Positions 41,918 through 54,642 of a stretch of 64,000 nucleotides of DNA are shown here, in pieces. The stretch is from positions 19,159 through 83,158 of the forward strand of contig DASZOU010000037.1 in assembly GCA_035550655.1 (NCBI GenBank). The letters run 5' to 3'. The DNA comes from Mycobacteriales bacterium. Lineage in GTDB: Bacteria; Actinomycetota; Actinomycetes; JAFAQI01. The notes under the pieces were generated by a model. That model did no database searches, was not told the DNA's origin, and worked only from the letters and a program-made list of their open reading frames with translations. The first letter of the stretch is position 1; each line of letters begins with the position of its first letter. The position numbers and the translations under genes are program-made.

Positions 41918-41921
41918 AACG

Positions 41922-41994
41922 CGCGCCCGGCAGGGATCGAACCTGCGACCAACTGCTTAGAAGGCAGTCGCTCTATCCGCTGAGCTACGGGCGC
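41922..41994 (-). tRNA. tRNA-Arg (anticodon TCT)
   Basis: The reverse complement folds as a cloverleaf: acceptor GCGCCCG/CGGGCGC, D arm GCTC...GAGC, anticodon stem ACTGC/GCAGT with loop CTTCTAA, T arm GCAGG-TTCGATC-CCTGC, discriminator G. No CCA is encoded. Confidence 0.85.
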
Positions 41995-42034: not shown

Positions 42035-42691
42035 ATGACGACTGGCTCGCGAGCAGGCGACGCGCTGGTCTGGATCGACTGCGAGATGACCGGACTCGAT
42101 CCCACGACCCACGTGCTCGTGGAGATTGCCGTCGTCATCACCGACGCCGAGCTCAACGTGCTCGACGACGGCATCGACATCGTGATCGGGGCGCGACCCG
42201 AGCAGCTCGTGGCGATGGATCCGATCGTTCACGAGATGCACGCCGCGTCCGGCCTGCTCGACGAGATCCGCCATTCGGTCATGACCGTCGAACACGCCGA
42301 GGAGCAGGTCCTCGAGTACGTGAGGCGCTTCGTGCCGGAACGCCGCAAGGCACCGCTGTGTGGCAACACGATCGCCACCGACCGCAGCTTCATCGCCCGC
42401 TACATGCCGGATCTCGACGACCACCTCCACTACCGGATGATCGACGTGTCGTCGATCAAGGAGCTGGCGCGCCGCTGGTATCCGCGGGCCTACTACAACG
42501 CTCCGGAGAAGAACGGCGGCCACCGCGCGCTTGCGGACATCCGAGAAAGCATCAATGAGCTCCGCTACTACCGGGCGACGGTGATGGTTCCGGCACCGGG
42601 TCCCGACACCGAGCAGGCACGAGCCGCGGTCAAGGCGCTCGGCCTCGAGGTCCCCTCCGCCGCCGGCGAGGCGGCCGCCAGCTCCGACTAG
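42035..42691 (+). CDS. orn: oligoribonuclease
   Basis: LVWIDCEMTGLDPTTHVLVEIAVVITD is the DEDDh exonuclease motif I, and the remaining Exo motifs are present. It is followed by tRNA-His, as in many actinobacteria. Confidence 0.9.
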   Translation: MTTGSRAGDALVWIDCEMTGLDPTTHVLVEIAVVITDAELNVLDDGIDIVIGARPEQLVAMDPIVHEMHAASGLLDEIRHSVMTVEHAEEQVLEYVRRFVPERRKAPLCGNTIATDRSFIARYMPDLDDHLHYRMIDVSSIKELARRWYPRAYYNAPEKNGGHRALADIRESINELRYYRATVMVPAPGPDTEQARAAVKALGLEVPSAAGEAAASSD

Positions 42692-42708: not shown

Positions 42709-42785
42709 GGTGGGTGTAGCTCAGCTGGTAGAGCACCGGGTTGTGGTCCCGGGTGTCGCGGGTTCAAGTCCCGTCACTCACCCCA
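42709..42785 (+). tRNA. tRNA-His (anticodon GTG) with encoded G-1 and 3' CCA
   Basis: G-1 pairs with C73. Acceptor GTGGGTG/CACTCAC, anticodon stem CCGGG/CCCGG with loop TTGTGGT, T arm GCGGG-TTCAAGT-CCCGT. CCA is encoded. Confidence 0.9.
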
Positions 42786-42811: not shown

Positions 42812-43756
42812 CTAGGAGCCGCTGGAGTTGGCCCCGTTGCCGTCGATCGCGACAAGGGTTTCGGGATCGATCGGGGCGCGTCGCAACAGCTCGCGCCAGC
42901 GGGTGGCGTCGTACGTCGCCGCCGGCGTCTCGGCCAGGAAGTGCTTCACCACCGAGACGAACCGATCCGGTTCGTCGTGATGCGGGAAGTGCCCAGAGCG
43001 CGCAAACACCTCCAGCCGGCTGCCGGGCAAGGCGCGATGCGCGGTGCGCGCGTGCTCGACCGGGATGATCCGGTCGCGCTCGCCCCACACAATCAGCGTC
43101 GGCAAACCGGCCGCGAGGTAGCAGCGATCCAGCATCGTCACCACCTGCCCCCGCGCATCCACGCCGGCACGCAGCGTCCGAAGAAACGCGCTACGCGACC
43201 GCGCTGAGGACAAGCCGTCGAAGCGTTGCACCACATAGTCGGTGTCCGGCCCGAGTCCGACGAACGGCATGTGCCGGACGAACGGCGTGGCCCGGCGGAT
43301 CAGGCGGCGCATCGGCGCTGACGTCACCAGTGGCATCACGATCTCGGCGCCCGGCGCGGCGGCCGCTCGCAGCAGCGGATGCACCGCCCGTCCCACCCCG
43401 CCGCTGCCGACGAGTACCAGCCGGTCACAGCGTTCCGGGAACTGGTAGGCGAACTGCATCGCGATCCCGCCACCGAGCGAGTGCCCGAGGACGGTGACCC
43501 GCTCGACTCCCAGCACCGACAGCAGATCGCGCATCCCGCAGGCGTACGCGCTGATCGCGTAGTCCGCCCGCGGCCGGTCCGACTCGCCGTGTCCGAGCAG
43601 ATCCGGTGCGATGACCGTGTACCGGCGGGCGAGCGGCTCGATGACGTCAGCCCAGGTCTCCGAGCTGTCACCGATGCCGTGAAGCAGGAGCAGTGGCGGA
43701 CCGGAGCCACCCATACGGAACGCGCGTCGATGACCGTGGATCACCCGATGCTGCAT
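42812..43756 (-). CDS. alpha/beta-fold hydrolase
   Basis: Start trimmed to MQHRVIHGHRRAFRMGGSGPPLLLLHGIG (HG oxyanion motif). The nucleophile elbow GHSLGG is present. Confidence 0.7.
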   Translation of the reverse strand: MQHRVIHGHRRAFRMGGSGPPLLLLHGIGDSSETWADVIEPLARRYTVIAPDLLGHGESDRPRADYAISAYACGMRDLLSVLGVERVTVLGHSLGGGIAMQFAYQFPERCDRLVLVGSGGVGRAVHPLLRAAAAPGAEIVMPLVTSAPMRRLIRRATPFVRHMPFVGLGPDTDYVVQRFDGLSSARSRSAFLRTLRAGVDARGQVVTMLDRCYLAAGLPTLIVWGERDRIIPVEHARTAHRALPGSRLEVFARSGHFPHHDEPDRFVSVVKHFLAETPAATYDATRWRELLRRAPIDPETLVAIDGNGANSSGS

Positions 43757-43861
43757 CTGCACCCGGTCGACTGCTGCGAGCACTCGGCACACCTCTCCCG
43801 CCCCACCTGGCATCAAACCCGGCGTACGACGAGCGCACCCTCTCGCTGTCTCGGCCGTGAG

Positions 43862-44758
43862 TCATCGGTGTGACGACGGTGTATCGGACGGCATTGACCA
43901 GTTCGCTGTCGACGGCGGGCTCGTCTCGAAGCTTTCGATCGCGCCGTAGCGTCCTCGCCGCCCCGCGGCCGGTAGGAGCTCCGCCACTCGCTGCACGCCG
44001 ACAGCGACGAAGTACGCCGGAACTAGCAGGGCAACGGCGACGATGCCGTCGAGCCAGTAATGGTTGCCCGTCACGACGACGACGAAGGACGTCACCACGG
44101 CGTGGAGAACGGCCAGCCACCGCCATCGGCTCGGGCTGCACTTGACGACCGCGATCGAGATCAGGACCGCCCAGCCGACATGGATCGATGGCATCGCGGC
44201 GTACTGGTCGGCGATGTGGGCGGCGAATCCGTTGTAGGGCGTCGGGCCTACGGCCTGGCCGGTATCCACCAAGCCAGGCACGCCGATGAGGCGAGGTGGC
44301 GCGACCTGCACCATCTGGATGAGCAGCGACATCGCCGTGAAGGCAACGATCGTGTTGCGCACGATCGGATACCGGTCGCGATGTCGTAGCCACAGCCACA
44401 GGAGGAAGACGACCATCGTGGTGAAGTGAGCCGACTCGTAGAAGTAGTTGGCCCACCTCACGAGCTCACGATGGTGAAGGATCAGTCGCTGGACGCTCAC
44501 CTCGCTTGGAAGGTGCAGCCAGCGCTCGGCGTTCCACAGATCGCGGCCGCGGGCCAGACCACCGGAGGTGTGTCCTCGCGCCAAGCCGTTTGCCACCTGC
44601 CAGAGCGCGTAGAGACCACAGATGATTGCGATCTCCAGCGCCGCAGCCGCGACGAACCGTGCCCACCTGCCGGAGAACCGGCTCGCCGCGACGGCGACGG
44701 GGAGCATCGCCCCAGCGAGAACCGTCGCACTGTGGACGTTGAGGATCAGCCACGACAC
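43862..44758 (-). CDS. PAP2-superfamily membrane protein (AUR1/IPC-synthase-like)
   Basis: Six TM helices. PSIHVGWAV and the C-terminal HYWLDGI resemble the PAP2 C2/C3 phosphatase motifs. Confidence 0.5.
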   Translation of the reverse strand: MSWLILNVHSATVLAGAMLPVAVAASRFSGRWARFVAAAALEIAIICGLYALWQVANGLARGHTSGGLARGRDLWNAERWLHLPSEVSVQRLILHHRELVRWANYFYESAHFTTMVVFLLWLWLRHRDRYPIVRNTIVAFTAMSLLIQMVQVAPPRLIGVPGLVDTGQAVGPTPYNGFAAHIADQYAAMPSIHVGWAVLISIAVVKCSPSRWRWLAVLHAVVTSFVVVVTGNHYWLDGIVAVALLVPAYFVAVGVQRVAELLPAAGRRGRYGAIESFETSPPSTANWSMPSDTPSSHR

Positions 44759-44767
44759 TTTCGAAAC

Positions 44768-47341
44768 CTACGAATCGCCCCTGAACCACGCCCGCACGTG
44801 TTCGGCGAGCTCCGCCCTCACCGGCGCCCCGGACAGCACGACATCCACCATCGTCGTCGAGGTGTGCGTGTGACCCCTCGCAACGACGTGCCTGACCGCG
44901 ACGCCCGCCGCTTCCAGGGCCTGGGCGTACGCGATCCCCTCATCACGCAGCGGGTCGAAGTCGGCCGTCACGATGACCGCCGGCGGCAGCCCCCGAAGGT
45001 CGCCGCGCAACGGGGCGGCTACCGCCCACGTCCGGTCAGCCGGGTCGGCGTACTGATCCCAGAACCAGCCCATGACCGCAGTAGTGAGGAGGTCGACCGC
45101 GGCGTTCTCGACGTACGACGAGCGGGTCAGGTCGCTGTCGGTCACGGGACTGATCAGCACTTGGCCGATCAGCGCCGGTCCGCCCGCGTCGCGCGCCTTC
45201 TGACACGCGACGGCGGCGATGTTGCCGCCGGCACTCCATCCCGCGACAAGCACCTGGCCGGGGATCCCGCCGAGATCGCTCGCGTGCGCAGCCACCCACT
45301 CGACGGCCGCGAACGCATCATCGGCCGCTGCCGGGAAGCGGTCCTCCGGCGCGTGCCGATAGTTCACCGACACGACAACCGCCCCGGTCCGATCACAGAG
45401 GTCACGGCAGAGCGGGTCGTCGGAGTCGAGATCGCCCAACACCCAGCCGCCGCCGTGGAAGTACACGAGGACGGGATGCGGGCCCGGTAGACCTGGTCGG
45501 TAGAGCCGATAAGGCAGCGGACCCGTGGCCCCGCGCAGGGTGCCGTCGACGACCTCACCGACCTCCGGTCCGGGCAGCCGCGTGGCCTGGAGCACGGTCA
45601 TCAACCCGCGGGCATCTGCGGCGGACAGCGTCTCGAGGCCCGGCAGGCCGGAGGCCTCAAGGATGTTCAGCACGATCGCAACGTCGGGCTGGACCCGTCG
45701 GACCACGCCTTCGTTGCACTCCGTGCCTCGCGGTCCGCTCAGCTTGAACCCGAGGTACCGGCGGGCGGTGACCTCGTCACAGGCCGCGCGGTATGCCTCG
45801 ACACCGCCGACATACGGATACAGCAGTCTCGGCTTGCCGGGGACGTTCGCGCCGACGTACCAGGAGTTCGCGAGATCGGTGAGGGTCAACGCGGCGCAGT
45901 CCGCGACGTGCTGGTTCCAACCCGCCTCCGCGGGCGCCGTCGCCTCGATGGTCTCGTAGCCCTCCTCACGGAGCCAGGCGAGACAGTCCGCCACCCATTC
46001 GACGTGCTGCTCGATCGACACCGCCATGTTCGAGAGCACGGATGGGCTGCCAGGACCCGTGATGGTGAAGAAGTTGGGGAAGCCGCTCGTCGTCAGGCCG
46101 AGGTAGGTCGAGGGACCATCGGCCCACTTCTGCCGCAACGTGACGCCGTCGCGCCCGGTGATGTCGACGCTGACGAGCGGTCCGGTCATGGCGTCGAACC
46201 CCGTCGCATAGACGATCGCGTCGAACTCGAGCGACTCCGCCGAGGTGTCGATCCCGGTCTCGGTAACCGACACGATCGGCGTATCACGGACGTCGATCAG
46301 GCGCACATGAGGCAGGTTGAAGGTCTCGTAGTAGCCGGTGTCGAGGCATGGTCGCTTGGTGCCGAACGGGTAGTCCTTCGGGCATAGCGCCGCCGCGACT
46401 GCGGGATCCGTCACCCGCTCGCGGATCTTCTCCCGGAGCAGCTCGGAGACGACGTTGTTGGCAGCCAGCCGCGCACCCTGGTCGTTGAAGACGCCGAGGA
46501 TTGCGAACAGCTCGCCCTCGGCGTACCGCTGCTCGAACCGCTCCCGCTGCTGTTGCGGCGTCATGAGCGACGCGTAGTGCTCCTCGTACTCGCCTGGGAT
46601 GCCGCCCGGAGACCATCTCGCGGCATCGCGGTACGCCGCCCGATCCTTCTCGAGCTGCGCCAGCCGCTCCGCCGAGGCTGGACCGTTGCGAGCAGGTATG
46701 GAGTACGCCGCGGTCCGCTGGAAGACGGTGAGCGACTCGGCGTGCTCGGCGATCAGCGGGATCGCCTGGACCGCGGATGAGCCGGTGCCGATCACCGCCA
46801 CCCGCTTGCCCGTGAAGTCAACCGGCTCGTGGGGCCACTTGCCGGTGAAGTAGACCTCGCGGGTGAAACGGTCGACGCCCTCGATGTCCGGGGTCTTCGG
46901 CAGCGAGAGGCAGCCACTGGCCATCACGTAGAACCGGCACGCCACGTCGTGGCCCGCGCTCGTCCGCAGCCGCCACAGCTTCGCCGCGCCGTCCCAAGCC
47001 GCGCTGTCAACCCGCGTGCCGAACTCGATGCTGCGGCGCAGGTCGTACCGATCCGCGACGAATCCCAGGTAGTCGAGGATCTCGGGCTGCGTGGCGTACT
47101 TCTCCGACCAGGACCATGCCTGCTCGAGCTCCTCGTCGAAGCTGTAGGTGTAGTCCGTGGTCGGGATGTCGCACCGTGCCCCCGGATAGCGGTTCCAGTA
47201 CCAGGTCCCGCCGACGTCGTCGGCCTGGTCGTAACACCTGACGTCGAAGCCGAGGCCGCGCAGCTTGTGGATCAGGTAGAGGCCGGCGAACCCCGCACCC
47301 ACGACAACGACATCGCGCTCGGCGGAGCGACTTTTCGTCAC
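44768..47341 (-). CDS. fusion protein: type I Baeyer-Villiger (flavin) monooxygenase with C-terminal alpha/beta-hydrolase (HSL-family esterase) domain
   Basis: Start trimmed to GTG after a GAGAGGGTGG RBS ([21 protein letters not shown]). The BVMO part has the FAD Rossmann fold, the [17 protein letters not shown] fingerprint and a second Rossmann fold ([10 protein letters not shown]). The C-terminal 300 aa have [13 protein letters not shown] (HGGG oxyanion motif) and GWSAGGN (GxSxG nucleophile) of hormone-sensitive-lipase-type esterases. Confidence 0.75.
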
Positions 47342-47396
47342 GAGGGCCACCCTCTCACCGAAACCGGCACCCTGGGCAGGAGCCGATCGGGCCAGC

Positions 47397-49736
47397 GTGG
47401 AAGATCTCTCGGTGAAGAAAATCGCCGCCATCGCCCTGCTTCTCACGGGTCTTGCCACACCACTGCAGATCGCCAGCGCCAGTCCCCACGCGCAGGCGAG
47501 GCCAAGCGCGCACGGCGGCGCCCGCCAGGCCTACGCGACCGGCCTCCGGCCGGGAGCGGCGACGGCACTCGTGAACGCCGCCGGTCACACGGTGGCGACC
47601 CAGCCCGCCGACTCGCTCGGCGGCGTCGTCTTCCGTGACGTCAAGCCCGGCAGCGGCTACCTGGTCAAGGAACAGAGCGGGCCGGCGTCCCGCCCCGTGA
47701 CCGTGCACACGGCGGCAGCCAAGCCGTGGGACCCGAAGGTCTACGACCAGACGATCCCCGACCACGGCTACGGCTACCTCACGACCCGTGACGGCACCAA
47801 GCTCGCCTATTACGTCCACCCGCCCACGAGCCCAGCCGGGCTCGGCCTGCCGGACGTCACGCTGCCGCCGGGGGTCCCTGACTACGCCCCGCCGTACCCG
47901 ACGCTGATCGAGTACGCCGGCTACGGCTACGCCAACCCGGCCGGCCCGGAGAGTGGCATCGCGATTCTCGCCAACGCCATGGGCTTCGCCGTGGTGGACG
48001 TGAACATGCGCGGCACCGGGTGCTCGGGCGGCTCGTTCAACTTCTTCGAGCGGATGCAGTCCCTCGACGGCTACGACGTCATCGAGACGGTCGCCCGCCA
48101 GCCCTGGGTGAAGGGCCACAAGGTCGGGATGGAGGGCATCTCCTACGGCGGCATCAGCCAGCTGTTCACGGCGCAGACCGATCCCCCGCACCTGGCCGCG
48201 ATCGCGCCGCTGTCCGTGATCGACGCCACCGCCACCACGCTCGAGCCCGGCGGCATCCTCAACGACGGCTTCGCGGTCGCGTGGGCCAACGAGCGCCAGC
48301 ACGATGCGCTGCCGGCCAGCCCGAAGGGTGGGCAGCCCTGGGCCTACAAGCGGATCCAGCAGGGCGACAAGACCTGCAAGGCCGACCAGGTCCTGCACGG
48401 CGAGGCGCAGAACCTGCCCGCGACCATCGCCGCGAACACGCACTACCACCCGGCGTACGCCGACACCCTCGACCCGATCACGTTCGTTCACAAGATCCAC
48501 GTGCCGGTCTTCATGGCCTGCCAGTTCGAGGACGAGCAGACCGGTGGGCACTGCATGGACCTCGCCCAGCACTTCACCGGCACGAAGCAGAAGTGGTTCA
48601 CCTTCACCAACGGCGTGCACGTCGACTCGCTCGACCCGTACACCTTCAACCGCTGGTACGACTTCCTCGAGCTGTACGTCGCCAAGCAGGCGCCGCTGAT
48701 CAACTCTGCGGTCATCAAGGCTGTCTCGCCGGTCGTCTACCAGGAGGCTGCGGGAGTGCCGACGACGGATCTGATCACGCTTCCGGTCGATCCGATCCAG
48801 CTCGACCCGACGTACGACGCCGCGCTGGCCGACTTCAAGCAGATCCCGTCGATCCGAGTGCTGTTCGACAACGGCGCCGGCACCGACCCGGCCGGCCAGT
48901 ACGTCCCCGGCAACCCCTACCCGGGGTTCGAGAAGTCGTTCTCGCGCTATCCGATCCCGGGGACGGTCGCGCAGCGGTGGTTCCTCGGACCCAAGGGCAC
49001 GCTGTCAGCCCACCGGACCGGCCGCGGTACCGACAGGTACACCGCGAACCCGCATGCCTTGCCGATGAACGACTTCATCGGCAGCACGGGTGGCGGCGGC
49101 CTGTGGGGCAACGCCTCGCAGTGGCACTGGAACTGGAAGCAGAACCCGGCCGGCACTGCCGTGTCCTACGTGACGCCGCCCCTCAAGTCCGACGCCACAG
49201 TCATCGGCGCCGGCGCGATCCACCTGTGGGTGAAGTCGTCCACGCCGGACGTGGACCTGCAGGCGACGGTCAGCGAGATCACACCTGACGGCAACGAGGT
49301 CTTCGTCCAGAACGGCTGGATGCGGGCCAGCGAGCGCAAGCTCGAGACCCGCAAGCACACGATCTTCGCTCAGCCGAGCACCTTGCTCGCCCCGGTGCCG
49401 AGCTTCCGCCCGCAGGACTCGCGCCCGATGCCCAAGGGCAAGTTCGTCAAGGTCGTGATCCCGCTGTACTACGAGGGCCACGTCTACCGCGCGGGCAGCC
49501 GGATCCGGATCACCATTGCCGGGCCGAACGGCACGCAGCCGATCTGGTCCTTCCAGCACCCGCGGCCGCAACACGGCACCAGCAAGGTGTCGGTCGCCTT
49601 CTCCAAGGCGCGGCCGTCGGCGCTCTACCTGCCCGTCATCCCGGGAGTGTCGGTCCCGACGGGGGTGCCGGCCTGCGGCAGCCTGCGGAACGAGCCGTGC
49701 CGGCCCTACGCGAAGACGGCGAACCAGAAGGGCTGA
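47397..49736 (+). CDS. CocE/NonD family hydrolase (S15 X-Pro dipeptidyl-peptidase/acyl-esterase fold), secreted
   Basis: 779-aa ORF with a signal peptide. [19 protein letters not shown]...GCSGGSF...GISYGG (nucleophile GxSYG) and a C-terminal beta-sandwich. It is a paralogue of 1509..3554. The start could be the second GTG at 47412. Confidence 0.8.
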
Positions 49737-52104: not shown

Positions 52105-52515
52105 TTGCTGGTCAAGTACGTTCTCCACGTGGTGAGCCTCGACCGCGCCGCCGAGATCGCCCTCGGGCTGCCCGGCGCGGAGGAGGTCGACCGCCGGGGT
52201 CAGCGCACCTGGCGGCTCGGTGAGAAGACATTTGCCTGGGAGCGCACGTTCTCCAAGGCGGACATCCGCCGGTACGGCGAGGAGCCGGTGCCCGCCGACC
52301 CGATCCTCGCGGTCCGGGTGGCGGACGAGGCCGAGAAGACCGCGGTCCTTGCCGAAGACCGACCGGGGTTCTTCACCATTCCGCACTTCGACGGCTTCAA
52401 CGCCGTCCTGATCGAGCTCGGGCGGGCGAAGGTGGCGGACGTCCGCGAGGCGCTGGTCGACGCCTGGCTCGTCTATGCCCCGCCTGCGGTTGCGGAGCGT
52501 TACCTCAAGAGCTGA
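52105..52515 (+). CDS. MmcQ/YjbR family DNA-binding protein
   Basis: 136-aa ORF. The overall pattern (LGLPGAEE...TFAW...GFFTIPHFDG) resembles the YjbR/MmcQ family. Confidence 0.5.
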   Translation: MLVKYVLHVVSLDRAAEIALGLPGAEEVDRRGQRTWRLGEKTFAWERTFSKADIRRYGEEPVPADPILAVRVADEAEKTAVLAEDRPGFFTIPHFDGFNAVLIELGRAKVADVREALVDAWLVYAPPAVAERYLKS

Positions 52516-53746
52516 AGAGCGCTCGTGCGTACCAGTCCGCGGCATCCTGCACGCCGGGCAGCGCAAAGAAGTAACCGCCACCGACGGGAGACACGTAGTC
52601 GATCATCGGCTCGCCGACGAGACGCTTCTGCACCGCTTCGAACTGCGTGCGCAGGTTGCGCTGGAAGCAGTTGAAGATCAGCCCCATGTCGAGGTTGCCG
52701 TTGAGGTCGACGCCGCGGTCGTAGTTGTAGCCGCGTCGCAGGATGCGCGAGTACTCCGACTCCGTCGTCCTCGGGTTGGCAAGCCGGATATGAGCGTCGA
52801 GCGGGATGACAAGGCCATTCGGATCGTCGCGGTAGTTGGGGACGTCGTCCTCCTGGTACCCGTCCAGCGGCGCGCCCGAGTCGCGCTTGCGGCCGATCAT
52901 GCCTTCCTGCTCCGCGAGCGAGACGCGGTCCCAGAACTCGATGAACATCTTGATGATTCGGCAGACGTGATAGCTCCCGCCCGCCGCCCAATCCGGCTCG
53001 GTCCCGTCGCGTTGAGCCCAGAGCAGCGCCCTCGACACGAGGTTGTTGCTGACATTCGGGTTCGCGATCCCGTCTTTGAATCCGAGGTGGTTGCGCGGCG
53101 TGCCCGAAGGCCGCGGCGGCGAGATGAAGCCATCGATTCGCCATCGCAGCTGCATGCCGCCGCGGGTGTGCTTGGCGATGTCGCGCAAGGCGTGGATGGC
53201 AACGTCGGGACTTCCTGCGCAGATCTGCAGAAGCAGGTCCCCGCCAGTCTGTGCGGGGTCGAGATTGTCGTTGGGGAAGGCGCGCATCGGCGAGAGATGC
53301 ACCGGCTTGCGCCCATGAAGCCCGTATCGATCGTCGAACAACGACGATCCGACGCTTGCGGTGATGGTGAGCCCGTCTGCCGGAACCTCCGGACCGACCG
53401 TGCCGCTGTCTGAGGGCGGAGCGCTCTTCCCGAGAGCATGTGGCTTCCCGCCGGCCGTGAGGAAGCGCGCGCGATGGGTCAGCGTCTTGAGCAGCTCCAC
53501 CAGGCCGCCACGGTGATCTGCGGTGACATCAAAGGCCGCGTAGCAGGCAGCGGGCGGCGCCGGCGTCACGATGCCCGCCTGGTGGGCTCCGTGGAACGGC
53601 ACCGCGGCAAGCTTCGCCGCCGGCCCACCGTTGGGATTGCGCGCCGGCGGGCCGTCCTTCTGCAGCCCGGGACGGGGGACGGGGAGAGCCGCGCCGAGCG
53701 CAGCCAGCCCGGAGCCGGTGAGGAAGTTGCGACGGTCGAGGTTCAT
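52505..53746 (-). CDS. efeB: Tat-secreted Dyp-type haem peroxidase / deferrochelatase
   Basis: The Tat signal MNLDRRNFLTGSGLAAL is present, with a DyP fold with conserved distal Asp/Arg region and GxxDG-type block (GFKDGIANP). The ATGA start overlaps the efeO stop. Confidence 0.8.
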   Translation of the reverse strand: MNLDRRNFLTGSGLAALGAALPVPRPGLQKDGPPARNPNGGPAAKLAAVPFHGAHQAGIVTPAPPAACYAAFDVTADHRGGLVELLKTLTHRARFLTAGGKPHALGKSAPPSDSGTVGPEVPADGLTITASVGSSLFDDRYGLHGRKPVHLSPMRAFPNDNLDPAQTGGDLLLQICAGSPDVAIHALRDIAKHTRGGMQLRWRIDGFISPPRPSGTPRNHLGFKDGIANPNVSNNLVSRALLWAQRDGTEPDWAAGGSYHVCRIIKMFIEFWDRVSLAEQEGMIGRKRDSGAPLDGYQEDDVPNYRDDPNGLVIPLDAHIRLANPRTTESEYSRILRRGYNYDRGVDLNGNLDMGLIFNCFQRNLRTQFEAVQKRLVGEPMIDYVSPVGGGYFFALPGVQDAADWYARALFSS

Positions 53747-54642
53747 CAGGTGTTTCCTACCTGCAGGAGGTCGGGAATCGGTGCCAGCCGCTCGTCGGCT
53801 TGGCCCGCAGCGGCATCGATCGCTTCGCGCTTGCGGCGCGGGAGAGACTTGATCGCTGTCCAGTGGCCGTGGTGATGTGCGGTGCGTGCCACATTGACGA
53901 GCCGGGACAAGTCGTGGCGGGCTTTCCCGACGAGGTGAGGTCGCCGCTGTTTGATCAGCGGCGCGAGCAACGTGAGCACCTTATGGGTGGCCTGAACATC
54001 GGCGGTGACAGACGCGAGGGCGGTACCGCTGCCGTACTCGTCGTTGCCACTGAGAGTGTCCCGCACCGCGTCCTCGATGATCTCGTGGCTGCGCAGCACG
54101 AAGTTGCTCGCACCGTCGACGTCGGTCGGGATCGCCTTGGCCAGCGACACGTGAGTAAGGGTCGTCACCGCCCCCGCGAGCTTCCTCGCGTCGTTGCGCG
54201 CCGCGGCGAGGCGCCCGTGCCACAGGTCCCGCTCGACGCAATGAAAGCCGGTGAACTTCGGGTCGCGCACTCCCCCCGAATGGCCCGCGGCGGTGCCGTC
54301 GATTCGTTGCCCGAGATCGCCGAACACGCCGTACGCGCTGTTGTCCTGGCCGATGCGCAGCCAGATCAGCCGGGCGTCGAGCCACGTTCGCTTCGCACCC
54401 GCGCGATCTCCGGCTGCGAGCCGGCGCTGCAAGGTGTGAACTGCGGGCACCAAGGCCTCGATCCTGCCGTGCACGTAGTGGCGGTACTTGCGCAGGGCCG
54501 GGGCGAGGTCGCTCGGCTGCAACGGCTGGGCAGTGCTGCTGTGGGCCGACGCCGACCGCAACGCCCATTCGCCTGCCTGAGGAGGAGCTGCGGTCGCGCC
54601 AACCGCGAGCAGCGCGGCAAGTGCCAGAGCTGGAGTTCGCAC
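53746..54642 (-). CDS. efeO: EfeO-like imelysin (M75) iron-uptake component
   Basis: Signal peptide. A HxxE-containing imelysin-like helical domain is suggested (VHGRIEAL...; GFHCVERDLWH). It sits upstream of and is coupled to efeB. No efeU is in the window. Confidence 0.6.
   Translation of the reverse strand: MRTPALALAALLAVGATAAPPQAGEWALRSASAHSSTAQPLQPSDLAPALRKYRHYVHGRIEALVPAVHTLQRRLAAGDRAGAKRTWLDARLIWLRIGQDNSAYGVFGDLGQRIDGTAAGHSGGVRDPKFTGFHCVERDLWHGRLAAARNDARKLAGAVTTLTHVSLAKAIPTDVDGASNFVLRSHEIIEDAVRDTLSGNDEYGSGTALASVTADVQATHKVLTLLAPLIKQRRPHLVGKARHDLSRLVNVARTAHHHGHWTAIKSLPRRKREAIDAAAGQADERLAPIPDLLQVGNT

Follow-up and report, generated by a model that had tools for sequence, protein, structure and literature searches.

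The window, by which we mean the whole analysed stretch of 64,000 nt, carries a minus-strand gene that joins in one ORF a homologue of type I Baeyer-Villiger monooxygenases (BVMOs) and an HSL-family esterase (EST), flanked downstream by a gene for a PAP2_3 membrane protein and on the other side by a divergent S15-peptidase gene (Table 1). The strand of the fusion gene was missing from the initial annotation. Translation of 47341..44768 revealed no internal stop codons, and the product was 100% identical to NCBI protein P0001, which is annotated from a Mycobacteriales metagenome-assembled genome (MAG). Pfam analysis identified Abhydrolase_3 (PF07859, E 4e-71; score 239.6 bits, gathering cut-off 25) and FMO-like/Pyr_redox_3 matches in the same protein; the claim that a single ORF encodes a BVMO and an esterase in frame was borne out, with both domains at full length, and all of the motifs quoted with that claim (GAGFAG, the 15 residues at aa 44–58, GTGSSA, HGGG, and GWSAG) were found in the protein.

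A longer ORF with a start at 47458 is formally possible. It was set aside in favour of the GTG at 47341 because homologues are 848–918 aa long, an SD-like GAGAGGG lies upstream of this GTG, and an extension to 47458 would run into the S15-peptidase gene starting at 47397. A minus-strand ORF at 47355..48620, considered as an upstream gene, was rejected as spurious, being antisense to the S15-peptidase gene. A promoter and terminator scan yielded nothing informative.

Table 1. Positions of the fusion gene, its domains and functional residues, and the adjacent genes in the window (aa, residue numbers of the fusion protein; A1, alignment A1).
Feature	Coordinates	Strand	Basis or remark
Whole fusion gene	44768..47341	-	GTG start 47341, TAG stop 44770..44768, 857 aa + stop
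Type I BVMO-homologous domain, aa 7–534	45740..47323	-	End-to-end alignment with STMO 4ap3 and PAMO 1w4x
FAD Rossmann motif GAGFAG, aa 15–20	47282..47299	-	G15, A16, G17, and G20 invariant in A1
Second BVMO motif (15 residues), aa 44–58	47168..47212	-	Last residue D58 equivalent to PAMO D66
Classical BVMO fingerprint site (12 residues), aa 159–170	46832..46867	-	Alignment
R161 at the conserved fingerprint Gly	46859..46861	-	Codon CGC
F165 at the conserved fingerprint His	46847..46849	-	
NADPH Rossmann motif GTGSSA, aa 185–190	46772..46789	-	Conserved in A1
R330, equivalent of the catalytic Arg of PAMO (GTKR)	46352..46354	-	Alignment; invariant in A1
Domain junction (18 residues), aa 535–552	45686..45739	-	Homology edges
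HSL-family (family IV, Abhydrolase_3) esterase with N-terminal cap helices	44771..45685	-	PF07859; structural homologues
HGGG oxyanion-hole motif, aa 629–632	45446..45457	-	Aligned with solved esterases
Nucleophile elbow GWSAG, aa 701–705	45227..45241	-	Aligns with GDSAG of Est8
Ser703, nucleophile	45233..45235	-	Within GWSAG
Asp796, triad acid, in DPLRDEG	44954..44956	-	Aligns with DPLKDEG of Est8; invariant in A1
His826, triad base, in GHTHT	44864..44866	-	Aligns with GMIHG of Est8; invariant in A1
PAP2_3 membrane protein gene, downstream	43862..44758	-	PF14378, E 2.5e-42
S15-peptidase gene, divergent	47397..49736	+	

The PAP2_3 gene starts 9 nt past the stop codon of the fusion, and the two are probably co-transcribed in this genome. 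The PAP2-family gene that the initial annotation placed directly downstream is thus present (PF14378, 9-nt gap), but it is not a conserved neighbour: no homologues of PAP2, Abhydrolase_1, or S15 were found around the fusion at 80 related loci (L001–L080), and PAP2 was also missing in L081 and L082, the two closest syntenic relatives examined. On the basis of these 82 loci, a functional operon link between the fusion and PAP2 was rejected. All-against-all clustering of ORFs from 20 fused loci identified no conserved neighbour pointing to a substrate; an enoyl-CoA hydratase was present at five of these loci and an SDR at four.

The N-terminal domain aligned with STMO of Rhodococcus rhodochrous (4ap3) and PAMO of Thermobifida fusca (1w4x) with E values of about 1e-173, and its identity to PAMO was 51% over 527 aa. 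It shares with both enzymes the two GxGxx[G/A] Rossmann motifs (FAD and NADPH) expected of a type I BVMO, a GGxWxxxxYPGxxxD motif, and the Asp/Arg pair known as D66/R337 in PAMO, which aligned with D58/R330 here, both residues being invariant in alignment A1. The residues at aa 44–58 match the consensus [A/G]GxWxxxx[F/Y]P[G/M]xxxD (Riebel 2012; 'BVMO1'), as quoted in PMC6058054 and PMC9044951. What the initial annotation had called the fingerprint was this second motif; the classical FxGxxxHxxxW[P/D] (Fraaije 2002; 'BVMO2') lies at aa 159–170, where the protein deviates from it at two positions, with Arg in place of Gly and Phe in place of His. PAMO and STMO, each of ~545 aa, stand alone and have the canonical FxGxxxHxxxWP, whereas the protein described here combines the deviating 12-residue stretch with ~310 C-terminal esterase residues. 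Judged by its sequence, this half is homologous to BVMOs but has a non-canonical fingerprint, and we withhold from it the status of a proven BVMO.

The C-terminal domain matched the solved HSL-family esterases Est8 (4ypv, E 8e-68), E40 (4ob7), and EST2 (1evq) in full-length alignments, sharing with them the N-terminal cap, the HGGG motif, and the Ser/Asp/His triad. The oxyanion-hole motif HGG(G) occurs as FHGGGW at aa 628–633 and was present in 118 of the 120 best homologues, and the triad S703/D796/H826, with Ser in a GxSxG elbow, was invariant at all three positions in alignment A1. The esterase had been described as complete, with inspection of the catalytic Asp and His in an alignment named as the point to check, and both D796 and H826 were in place. 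The cap is likewise present: the alignment begins at residue 5 of EST2, 18–19 of E40, and 39–40 of Est8, and an AF2 model places helices at aa 552–563 and 574–586. The elbow reads GDSAG or GTSAG in Est8, E40, and EST2, whereas GWSAG is a trait specific to the main fused clade, and the present esterase, unlike these three, is not free-standing. The closest named subfamily was NCBIfam LipP1 (NF058653, equivalog), of which the protein is not a member by the NCBI criterion, its score of 325.1 bits falling below the cut-off of 350.

BVMO homology ended at aa 534 and homology to solved HSL esterases began at aa 544–552, so that the junction between the domains comprises about 10–17 aa. The linker of ~40 aa proposed in the initial annotation is in fact the esterase's own N-terminal cap, and the interval 45480..45600, where the junction had been placed, corresponds to aa 581–621 within the esterase (the actual position is given in Table 1). 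In the AF2 model, a beta hairpin at aa 532–543 precedes the cap helices, the junction contains no low-confidence stretch, and interdomain confidence is moderate (pTM 0.69). The distance between the aligned halves was 30–39 nt in 19 fused loci of the main clade and 63 nt in L018 and L019.

An ORF of this kind could arise artificially if a frameshift or the loss of a stop codon ran two adjacent genes together during sequencing or assembly; the window derives from a MAG, as the annotation of P0001 indicates, and separate adjacent BVMO and esterase genes occur in relatives (10 loci, in either order). We rejected this origin, the probability of which is close to nil, because the in-frame fusion is conserved across homologues. 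The best 120 homologues (67–85% identical, plus one identical record) were without exception full-length fusions of 848–918 aa containing both Pfam families, and the underlying assemblies are numerous and independent, with NCBI, JGI, ENA, and Logan as sources. In-frame BVMO-EST fusions were present in 21 species-level genomes from several phyla, isolates among them, including Mycobacterium, Bradyrhizobium, Paenibacillus, Mesobacillus, and Chromatiales; the gap lengths in these loci and the structured junction of the AF2 model also argue against an artefact. Both domains therefore occur in one uninterrupted ORF in independent genomes.

The initial annotation had presented the fusion as unusual compared with adjacent separate genes and had asked how widespread it is; with 120 of the 120 best homologues and 21 species-level genomes across several phyla sharing it, the architecture is common. 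Neighbour-joining trees of both domains distinguished at least three fusion lineages. Esterase-BVMO fusions in the reverse order were found at four loci (L026, L029, L031, and L033; representative P0123). There, too, a single ORF encodes both domains, and the BVMO part belongs to a related lineage (53–55% identity) in which the fingerprint His is replaced by V, I, or L. These fusions differ in their inverted order and in a GDSAG-type esterase that groups with esterases whose genes lie upstream of separate BVMO genes, and we therefore regard them as the product of an independent fusion event. The clade of BVMO-esterase fusions to which the gene in the window belongs is large and old, and the gene is an ordinary member of it.

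The two deviations at the fingerprint site differ in their distribution. Arg at the Gly site was found in one of the 120 best homologues, namely this sequence alone, and was also unique relative to the 21 fused loci, against a Gly161 that is more than 90% conserved in alignment A1. It represents a single-nucleotide difference (GGC to CGC), which could weaken this copy or be a consensus error of the MAG. At the His site, by comparison, most of the fused clade has Phe, Tyr, Leu, or Trp: of the 21 BVMO-EST fused loci, 18 lack the His, as do all four reverse fusions. In the species-level set, His was present in 44 of 45 stand-alone loci versus 3 of 21 BVMO-EST and 0 of 4 EST-BVMO fusions. In a wider sample, His was kept in five more distant fused representatives and missing in 30 of 71 complete stand-alone representatives. 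Loss of His as a result of fusion was dropped as an explanation, since the species-level contrast vanished in the wider sample, and the replacement is treated as a clade trait. As His is absent both from fusions and from these 30 stand-alone proteins, the strict FxGxxxHxxxW[P/D] motif is a heuristic for mining and captures the homologous family incompletely.

These substitutions raise the question of whether the BVMO half is crippled here, the Gly-to-Arg change coming on top of the clade-wide His-to-Phe change, in which case the protein would be an esterase only or decaying. The uniqueness of R161 at a strongly conserved site is in keeping with this, and in the literature the fingerprint counts as an obligatory hallmark of type I BVMOs (PMC9044951). 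However, the domain is otherwise preserved: it has both Rossmann motifs, D58, and R330 and is free of stops. The fingerprint sits in an interdomain linker, outside the active site (PMC9044951), and the motif tolerates variation, since other complete BVMO homologue representatives have K, D, E, or M in place of the Gly and 30 of 71 are without the His. We consider a crippled BVMO half unlikely.

The gene product is a single-polypeptide fusion in which a PAMO/STMO-like type I BVMO (N-terminal, FAD/NADPH) and an HSL-family serine esterase (C-terminal) would probably act on consecutive steps from a ketone. With NADPH and O2, the BVMO domain would insert oxygen beside the ketone carbonyl to form an ester, which the fused esterase, using Ser703/Asp796/His826 and the HGGG oxyanion hole, would cleave into an alcohol and a short acid, e.g. 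acetate. A methyl or aryl-alkyl ketone would be the most likely substrate because the closest characterised enzymes are PAMO and STMO, which turn methyl ketones into acetate esters, and the scheme would fit subterminal alkane or ketone catabolism. The sequence data establish the ORF, the identity of its domains, and the conservation of the catalytic residues and of the fusion, which recurs in other arrangements; activity, substrate, step order, and any channelling are inferred. Functional coupling is supported in the Rosetta-stone sense because both enzyme types recur side by side, in either gene order, and also fused the other way round. The cascade from ketone through ester to alcohol and acid in one polypeptide, as proposed in the initial annotation, is plausible and is retained as a reading of this recurrence, the aligned catalytic residues, and the 21 in-frame fusions; the same pathway logic, from ketone via a BVMO ester to alcohol and acetate, is described in PMC11644497.

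The domains may instead not catalyse consecutive steps. Promiscuity is frequent among HSL esterases, and this one might act on unrelated esters or lactones, or act first and so release a masked substrate, with fusion serving only co-expression or stability. The lack of conserved neighbourhoods and of any substrate pointer among them is compatible with this arrangement as well. Nevertheless, unless the two enzymes share a pathway, it is difficult to see why the same BVMO lineage should repeatedly be paired with HSL esterases, as a neighbour in either order and in at least three separate fusion lineages, and the ester product of a BVMO is a natural substrate for an esterase (PMC6563810; PMC11644497). 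We consequently regard non-consecutive action as improbable and favour the two-step scheme.

Adjacent genes for the two enzyme classes in ketone catabolism are known from mekA/mekB of Pseudomonas veronii MEK700, acmA/acmB of Gordonia sp. TY-5, and mymA/lipR of M. tuberculosis. Pairs of the mekA/mekB type employ the same classes in sequence as separate polypeptides, whereas here they are covalently joined. Aalbers & Fraaije 2018 (PMC6563810), with reference to van Beilen et al. 2003, mention in one sentence natural BVMO-esterase fusions from genome analysis, with the same architecture and logic (the esterase hydrolyses the ester or lactone made by the BVMO); that review gives no sequence by which its fusions could be assigned to this clade or to another. 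A literature search for a biochemically characterised clade member or natural fusion returned this mention only. The architecture is both common and already remarked on in the 2018 review, and the protein is already in public databases, so that the gene adds little to genome annotation. Such modest value as it has lies in applications.

More tentatively, the main clade, defined by FxGxxx[F/Y]xxxWP and the GWSAG elbow, may be a distinct uncharacterised lineage skipped by fingerprint mining, in which the covalent link might give kinetic coupling through channelling or through protection of a labile or toxic ester; we hold this to be possible but doubtful. If true, the fusion would be a ready-made, self-contained ketone-to-alcohol catalyst. 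Because the main fused clade fails the classical fingerprint, strict motif-based surveys would miss it. Biocatalysis groups construct artificial BVMO fusions, and BVMO-esterase fusions are available from nature in large number, with either domain order and from at least three origins. A relative with the canonical Gly would be a better subject than the R161 variant, and characterising one member of the clade would reveal whether the two domains are kinetically coupled and which ketones they handle.

The fusion gene proved to be one continuous frame, as the initial annotation had proposed, and it lies on the minus strand; all of the motifs quoted in that annotation were found in their places. 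A longer version of the ORF reaching up to 47458 is formally possible; this start is disfavoured by an SD-like GAGAGGG 5' of the GTG at 47341, by homologue lengths of 848–918 aa, and by overlap with the S15 gene. A further minus-strand ORF (47355..48620, 421 aa) was rejected as an upstream gene, being spurious and antisense to the S15 gene. Other long spurious antisense ORFs lie opposite real genes in the window; such shadow ORFs are abundant because of its G+C content of 69%, for which they are typical.

Features of the fusion gene, its surroundings, and related loci (window coordinates unless a locus is named)
Feature	Position	Strand	Remarks
BVMO-esterase fusion ORF	47341 (GTG start) to 44770..44768 (TAG stop)	-	857 aa, uninterrupted
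Classical fingerprint site	46832..46867 (aa 159-170)	-	Gly to Arg and His to Phe vs consensus
Arg161 codon	46859..46861	-	Gly site of fingerprint; CGC, one nucleotide from GGC
Nucleophile elbow GWSAG	45227..45241	-	Second clade marker; Trp replaces the usual Asp/Thr of HSL esterases
Secreted S15-type peptidase/CocE-like hydrolase gene	47397..49736	+	Divergent from fusion gene
PAP2_3 membrane protein gene (PF14378)	Start 9 nt past fusion stop		Downstream
Abhydrolase_1 gene	42812..43816		After PAP2_3 gene
tRNA-His(GTG)	42710..42785	+	
Oligoribonuclease-like gene orn, RNase_T family	42035..42691		Between the two tRNAs
tRNA-Arg(TCT)	41921..41994	-	
Tat-signal DyP-type peroxidase gene	52505..53746	-	
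Imelysin/Peptidase_M75-like gene	53746..54642	-	Directly precedes DyP-type peroxidase gene
Enoyl-CoA hydratase-family genes	L001 7704..8621; L061 8492..8929; L083 10671..11621; L006 4333..5163; L008 11629..12519		Near fusion
Reverse-order fusions	L026, L029, L031, L033		Esterase N-terminal, BVMO C-terminal; representative P0123

Pfam analysis assigned the N-terminal part to FMO-like/Pyr_redox_3 and the C-terminal part to Abhydrolase_3 (PF07859; 239.6 bits, E 4e-71). The BVMO domain (aa 7–534) aligned end to end with steroid monooxygenase (STMO, 4ap3) and phenylacetone monooxygenase (PAMO, 1w4x), each at E ~1e-173, with 51% identity to PAMO across 527 aa; D58 and R330 match the Asp and Arg in the active site of PAMO. 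The esterase domain aligned with complete HSL-family esterases (Est8, 4ypv, E 8e-68; E40, 4ob7; EST2, 1evq), and its HGGG motif, Ser703 (GWSAG), Asp796 (DPLRDEG), and His826 (GHTHT) were in register with the solved structures. Across 40 aligned fused homologues none of these residues varied, the catalytic Asp and His included, in keeping with the earlier description of the esterase as complete.

BVMO homology stopped at aa 534 (residue 541 of the 542 in PAMO) and esterase homology started at aa 544–552 (residue 5 of EST2, 18–19 of E40, and 39–40 of Est8), which places a connector of ~10–17 residues at 45686..45739. The initial annotation had envisaged a ~40-aa linker and a junction at 45480..45600; the supposed linker belongs to the esterase as its N-terminal cap, and the proposed junction segment encodes aa 581–621, within the esterase. 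An AlphaFold2 model built from the 40-sequence alignment (mean pLDDT 78.1, pTM 0.69) contained a beta hairpin at 532–543 and cap helices at 552–563 and 574–586, with no low-confidence segment at the domain junction.

When 5.8 billion clustered proteins were searched, an identical NCBI record from a Mycobacteriales MAG was found, and all of the best 120 matches (848–918 aa) contained both Pfam families, the 119 non-identical ones showing 67–85% identity. These came from NCBI, JGI, ENA, and Logan assemblies and from Mycobacteriales, Acidimicrobiales, Streptosporangiaceae, and others. A species-level scan with one genome per species yielded more than 600 related stretches; in-frame BVMO-esterase fusions were present in 21 of the best 80 loci, the aligned halves being separated by 30–39 nt in the 19 loci of the main clade and by 63 nt in the two Bacillota loci. 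Hosts included Mycobacterium sp. TY814, M. intermedium, Bradyrhizobium agreste, B. japonicum, Paenibacillus, Mesobacillus persicus, Chromatiales, and Burkholderiaceae, and clustering at 50% added several fused representatives with 29–47% BVMO-domain identity. By these homology searches the architecture is widespread, and its recurrence in many independent assemblies and in the 21 species-level loci rules out an assembly artefact.

Other arrangements were found among the same 80 loci: adjacent separate genes with the BVMO first (5/80), adjacent separate genes with the esterase first (5/80), and an in-frame esterase-BVMO fusion in reverse order (4/80), the last in MAGs of Alphaproteobacteria, Hyphomonas, and Alteromonadaceae. 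In neighbour-joining trees built for each domain, the 19 fused loci and the window protein formed one clade and the two Bacillota fusions (L018, L019) fell in another. The reverse-order fusions formed a third; their esterase part clustered with esterases that have a separate BVMO gene downstream, and such gene pairs appear to be their origin. This pattern, in trees without support values, suggests that fusion took place independently at least three times. The recurrence of the pairing, as fusions in both orders and as adjacent genes, is good comparative evidence that BVMO and esterase serve the same pathway.

The motif initially labelled the fingerprint is present, but it is the second BVMO motif, [A/G]GxWxxxx[F/Y]P[G/M]xxxD, and not the classical FxGxxxHxxxW[P/D] (PMC6058054, PMC9044951). 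Structure-match alignment gave FAGNLYHTGNWP at the classical site in PAMO and FTGDIVHTARWP in STMO. Most members of the main fused clade have Phe (or Tyr, Leu, Trp) at the His position. In the species-level set the His was retained in 44 of 45 stand-alone loci, 8/10 adjacent pairs, 3/21 BVMO-esterase fusions, and 0/4 esterase-BVMO fusions. This close tracking failed in the wider representative set, where five distant fused representatives had the His, and 30 of the 71 cluster representatives that are complete stand-alone BVMO homologues had another residue at the site (among them Y, Q, R, F, and M; within P0126–P0270); the comparison thus shows His loss to be a lineage trait, not a rule of fusion. 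Mining pipelines strictly require the fingerprint and would therefore skip the main fused clade, and many BVMO homologues are probably missed in this way. GWSAG was found in 16/16 main-clade loci, and every other fused or adjacent esterase had GDSAG or GASAG.

Non-Gly residues at the fingerprint Gly site were also seen elsewhere in the wider set; Arg occurred in 1 of 120 homologues, the window protein itself, the remaining fused homologues that were inspected all having Gly. Arg161 is either a real lineage-specific substitution of a conserved linker Gly or a MAG consensus error. Its uniqueness might point to an impaired BVMO half in the window copy, which we consider improbable. The fingerprint is part of the linker that joins the FAD domain to the NADPH domain and lies outside the active site (PMC9044951).

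The PAP2 gene initially placed directly downstream is there, but its adjacency is not conserved. L081 and L082, the closest relatives on long contigs (fusion proteins 83–84% identical), are syntenic with the window and have no PAP2 gene adjoining the fusion. Both carry two additional same-orientation genes upstream of it (Peripla_BP_6 and Abhydrolase_1), the only extras in L082; L081 has two further genes downstream, both on the opposite strand, one of Abhydrolase_1 and one of Abhydrolase_3 type (418 aa). The fusion-gene segment is variable and hydrolase-rich among these otherwise syntenic genomes (window 42812..47396, L081 3666..10717, L082 3655..8565). Beyond the Abhydrolase_1 gene, the window continues with tRNA-His, orn, tRNA-Arg, adenylate cyclase, and a liv-type ABC transporter; several listed ORFs are mere translations across the two tRNAs. 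Farther away, the DyP-type peroxidase and imelysin-like genes (52505..54642) look like an EfeB/EfeO-type iron-uptake pair. No homologue of the PAP2, Abhydrolase_1, or S15 gene was found near any of the 80 related loci, and ORF clustering across 20 fused loci revealed no conserved partner gene. Enoyl-CoA hydratase occurred in 5/20 (immediately downstream of the fusion in L001 and L061), SDR in 4/20, and an acyl-CoA ligase gene in L083; this context hints only weakly, if at all, at lipid, fatty-acid, or ketone catabolism.

In the proposed mechanism, the NADPH/FAD-dependent BVMO domain would insert oxygen into a ketone to give an ester, which the Ser703/Asp796/His826 esterase would hydrolyse to alcohol and acid. 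Such a coupled two-step function is probable for the fusion clade; activity, substrate, and any channelling are predictions. PAMO and STMO convert methyl ketones to acetate esters, and since they are the nearest characterised BVMOs, methyl and aryl-alkyl ketones are the first-choice candidate substrates. The scheme agrees with the subterminal oxidation route (PMC11644497).

Natural BVMO-esterase fusions were already mentioned by Aalbers & Fraaije 2018 (PMC6563810), citing van Beilen et al. 2003; a literature search, with most subscription journals outside its coverage, found no biochemical study of one. The window protein is a further member of a known, abundant, database-annotated architecture, of little weight for genome biology and modest weight for biocatalysis.
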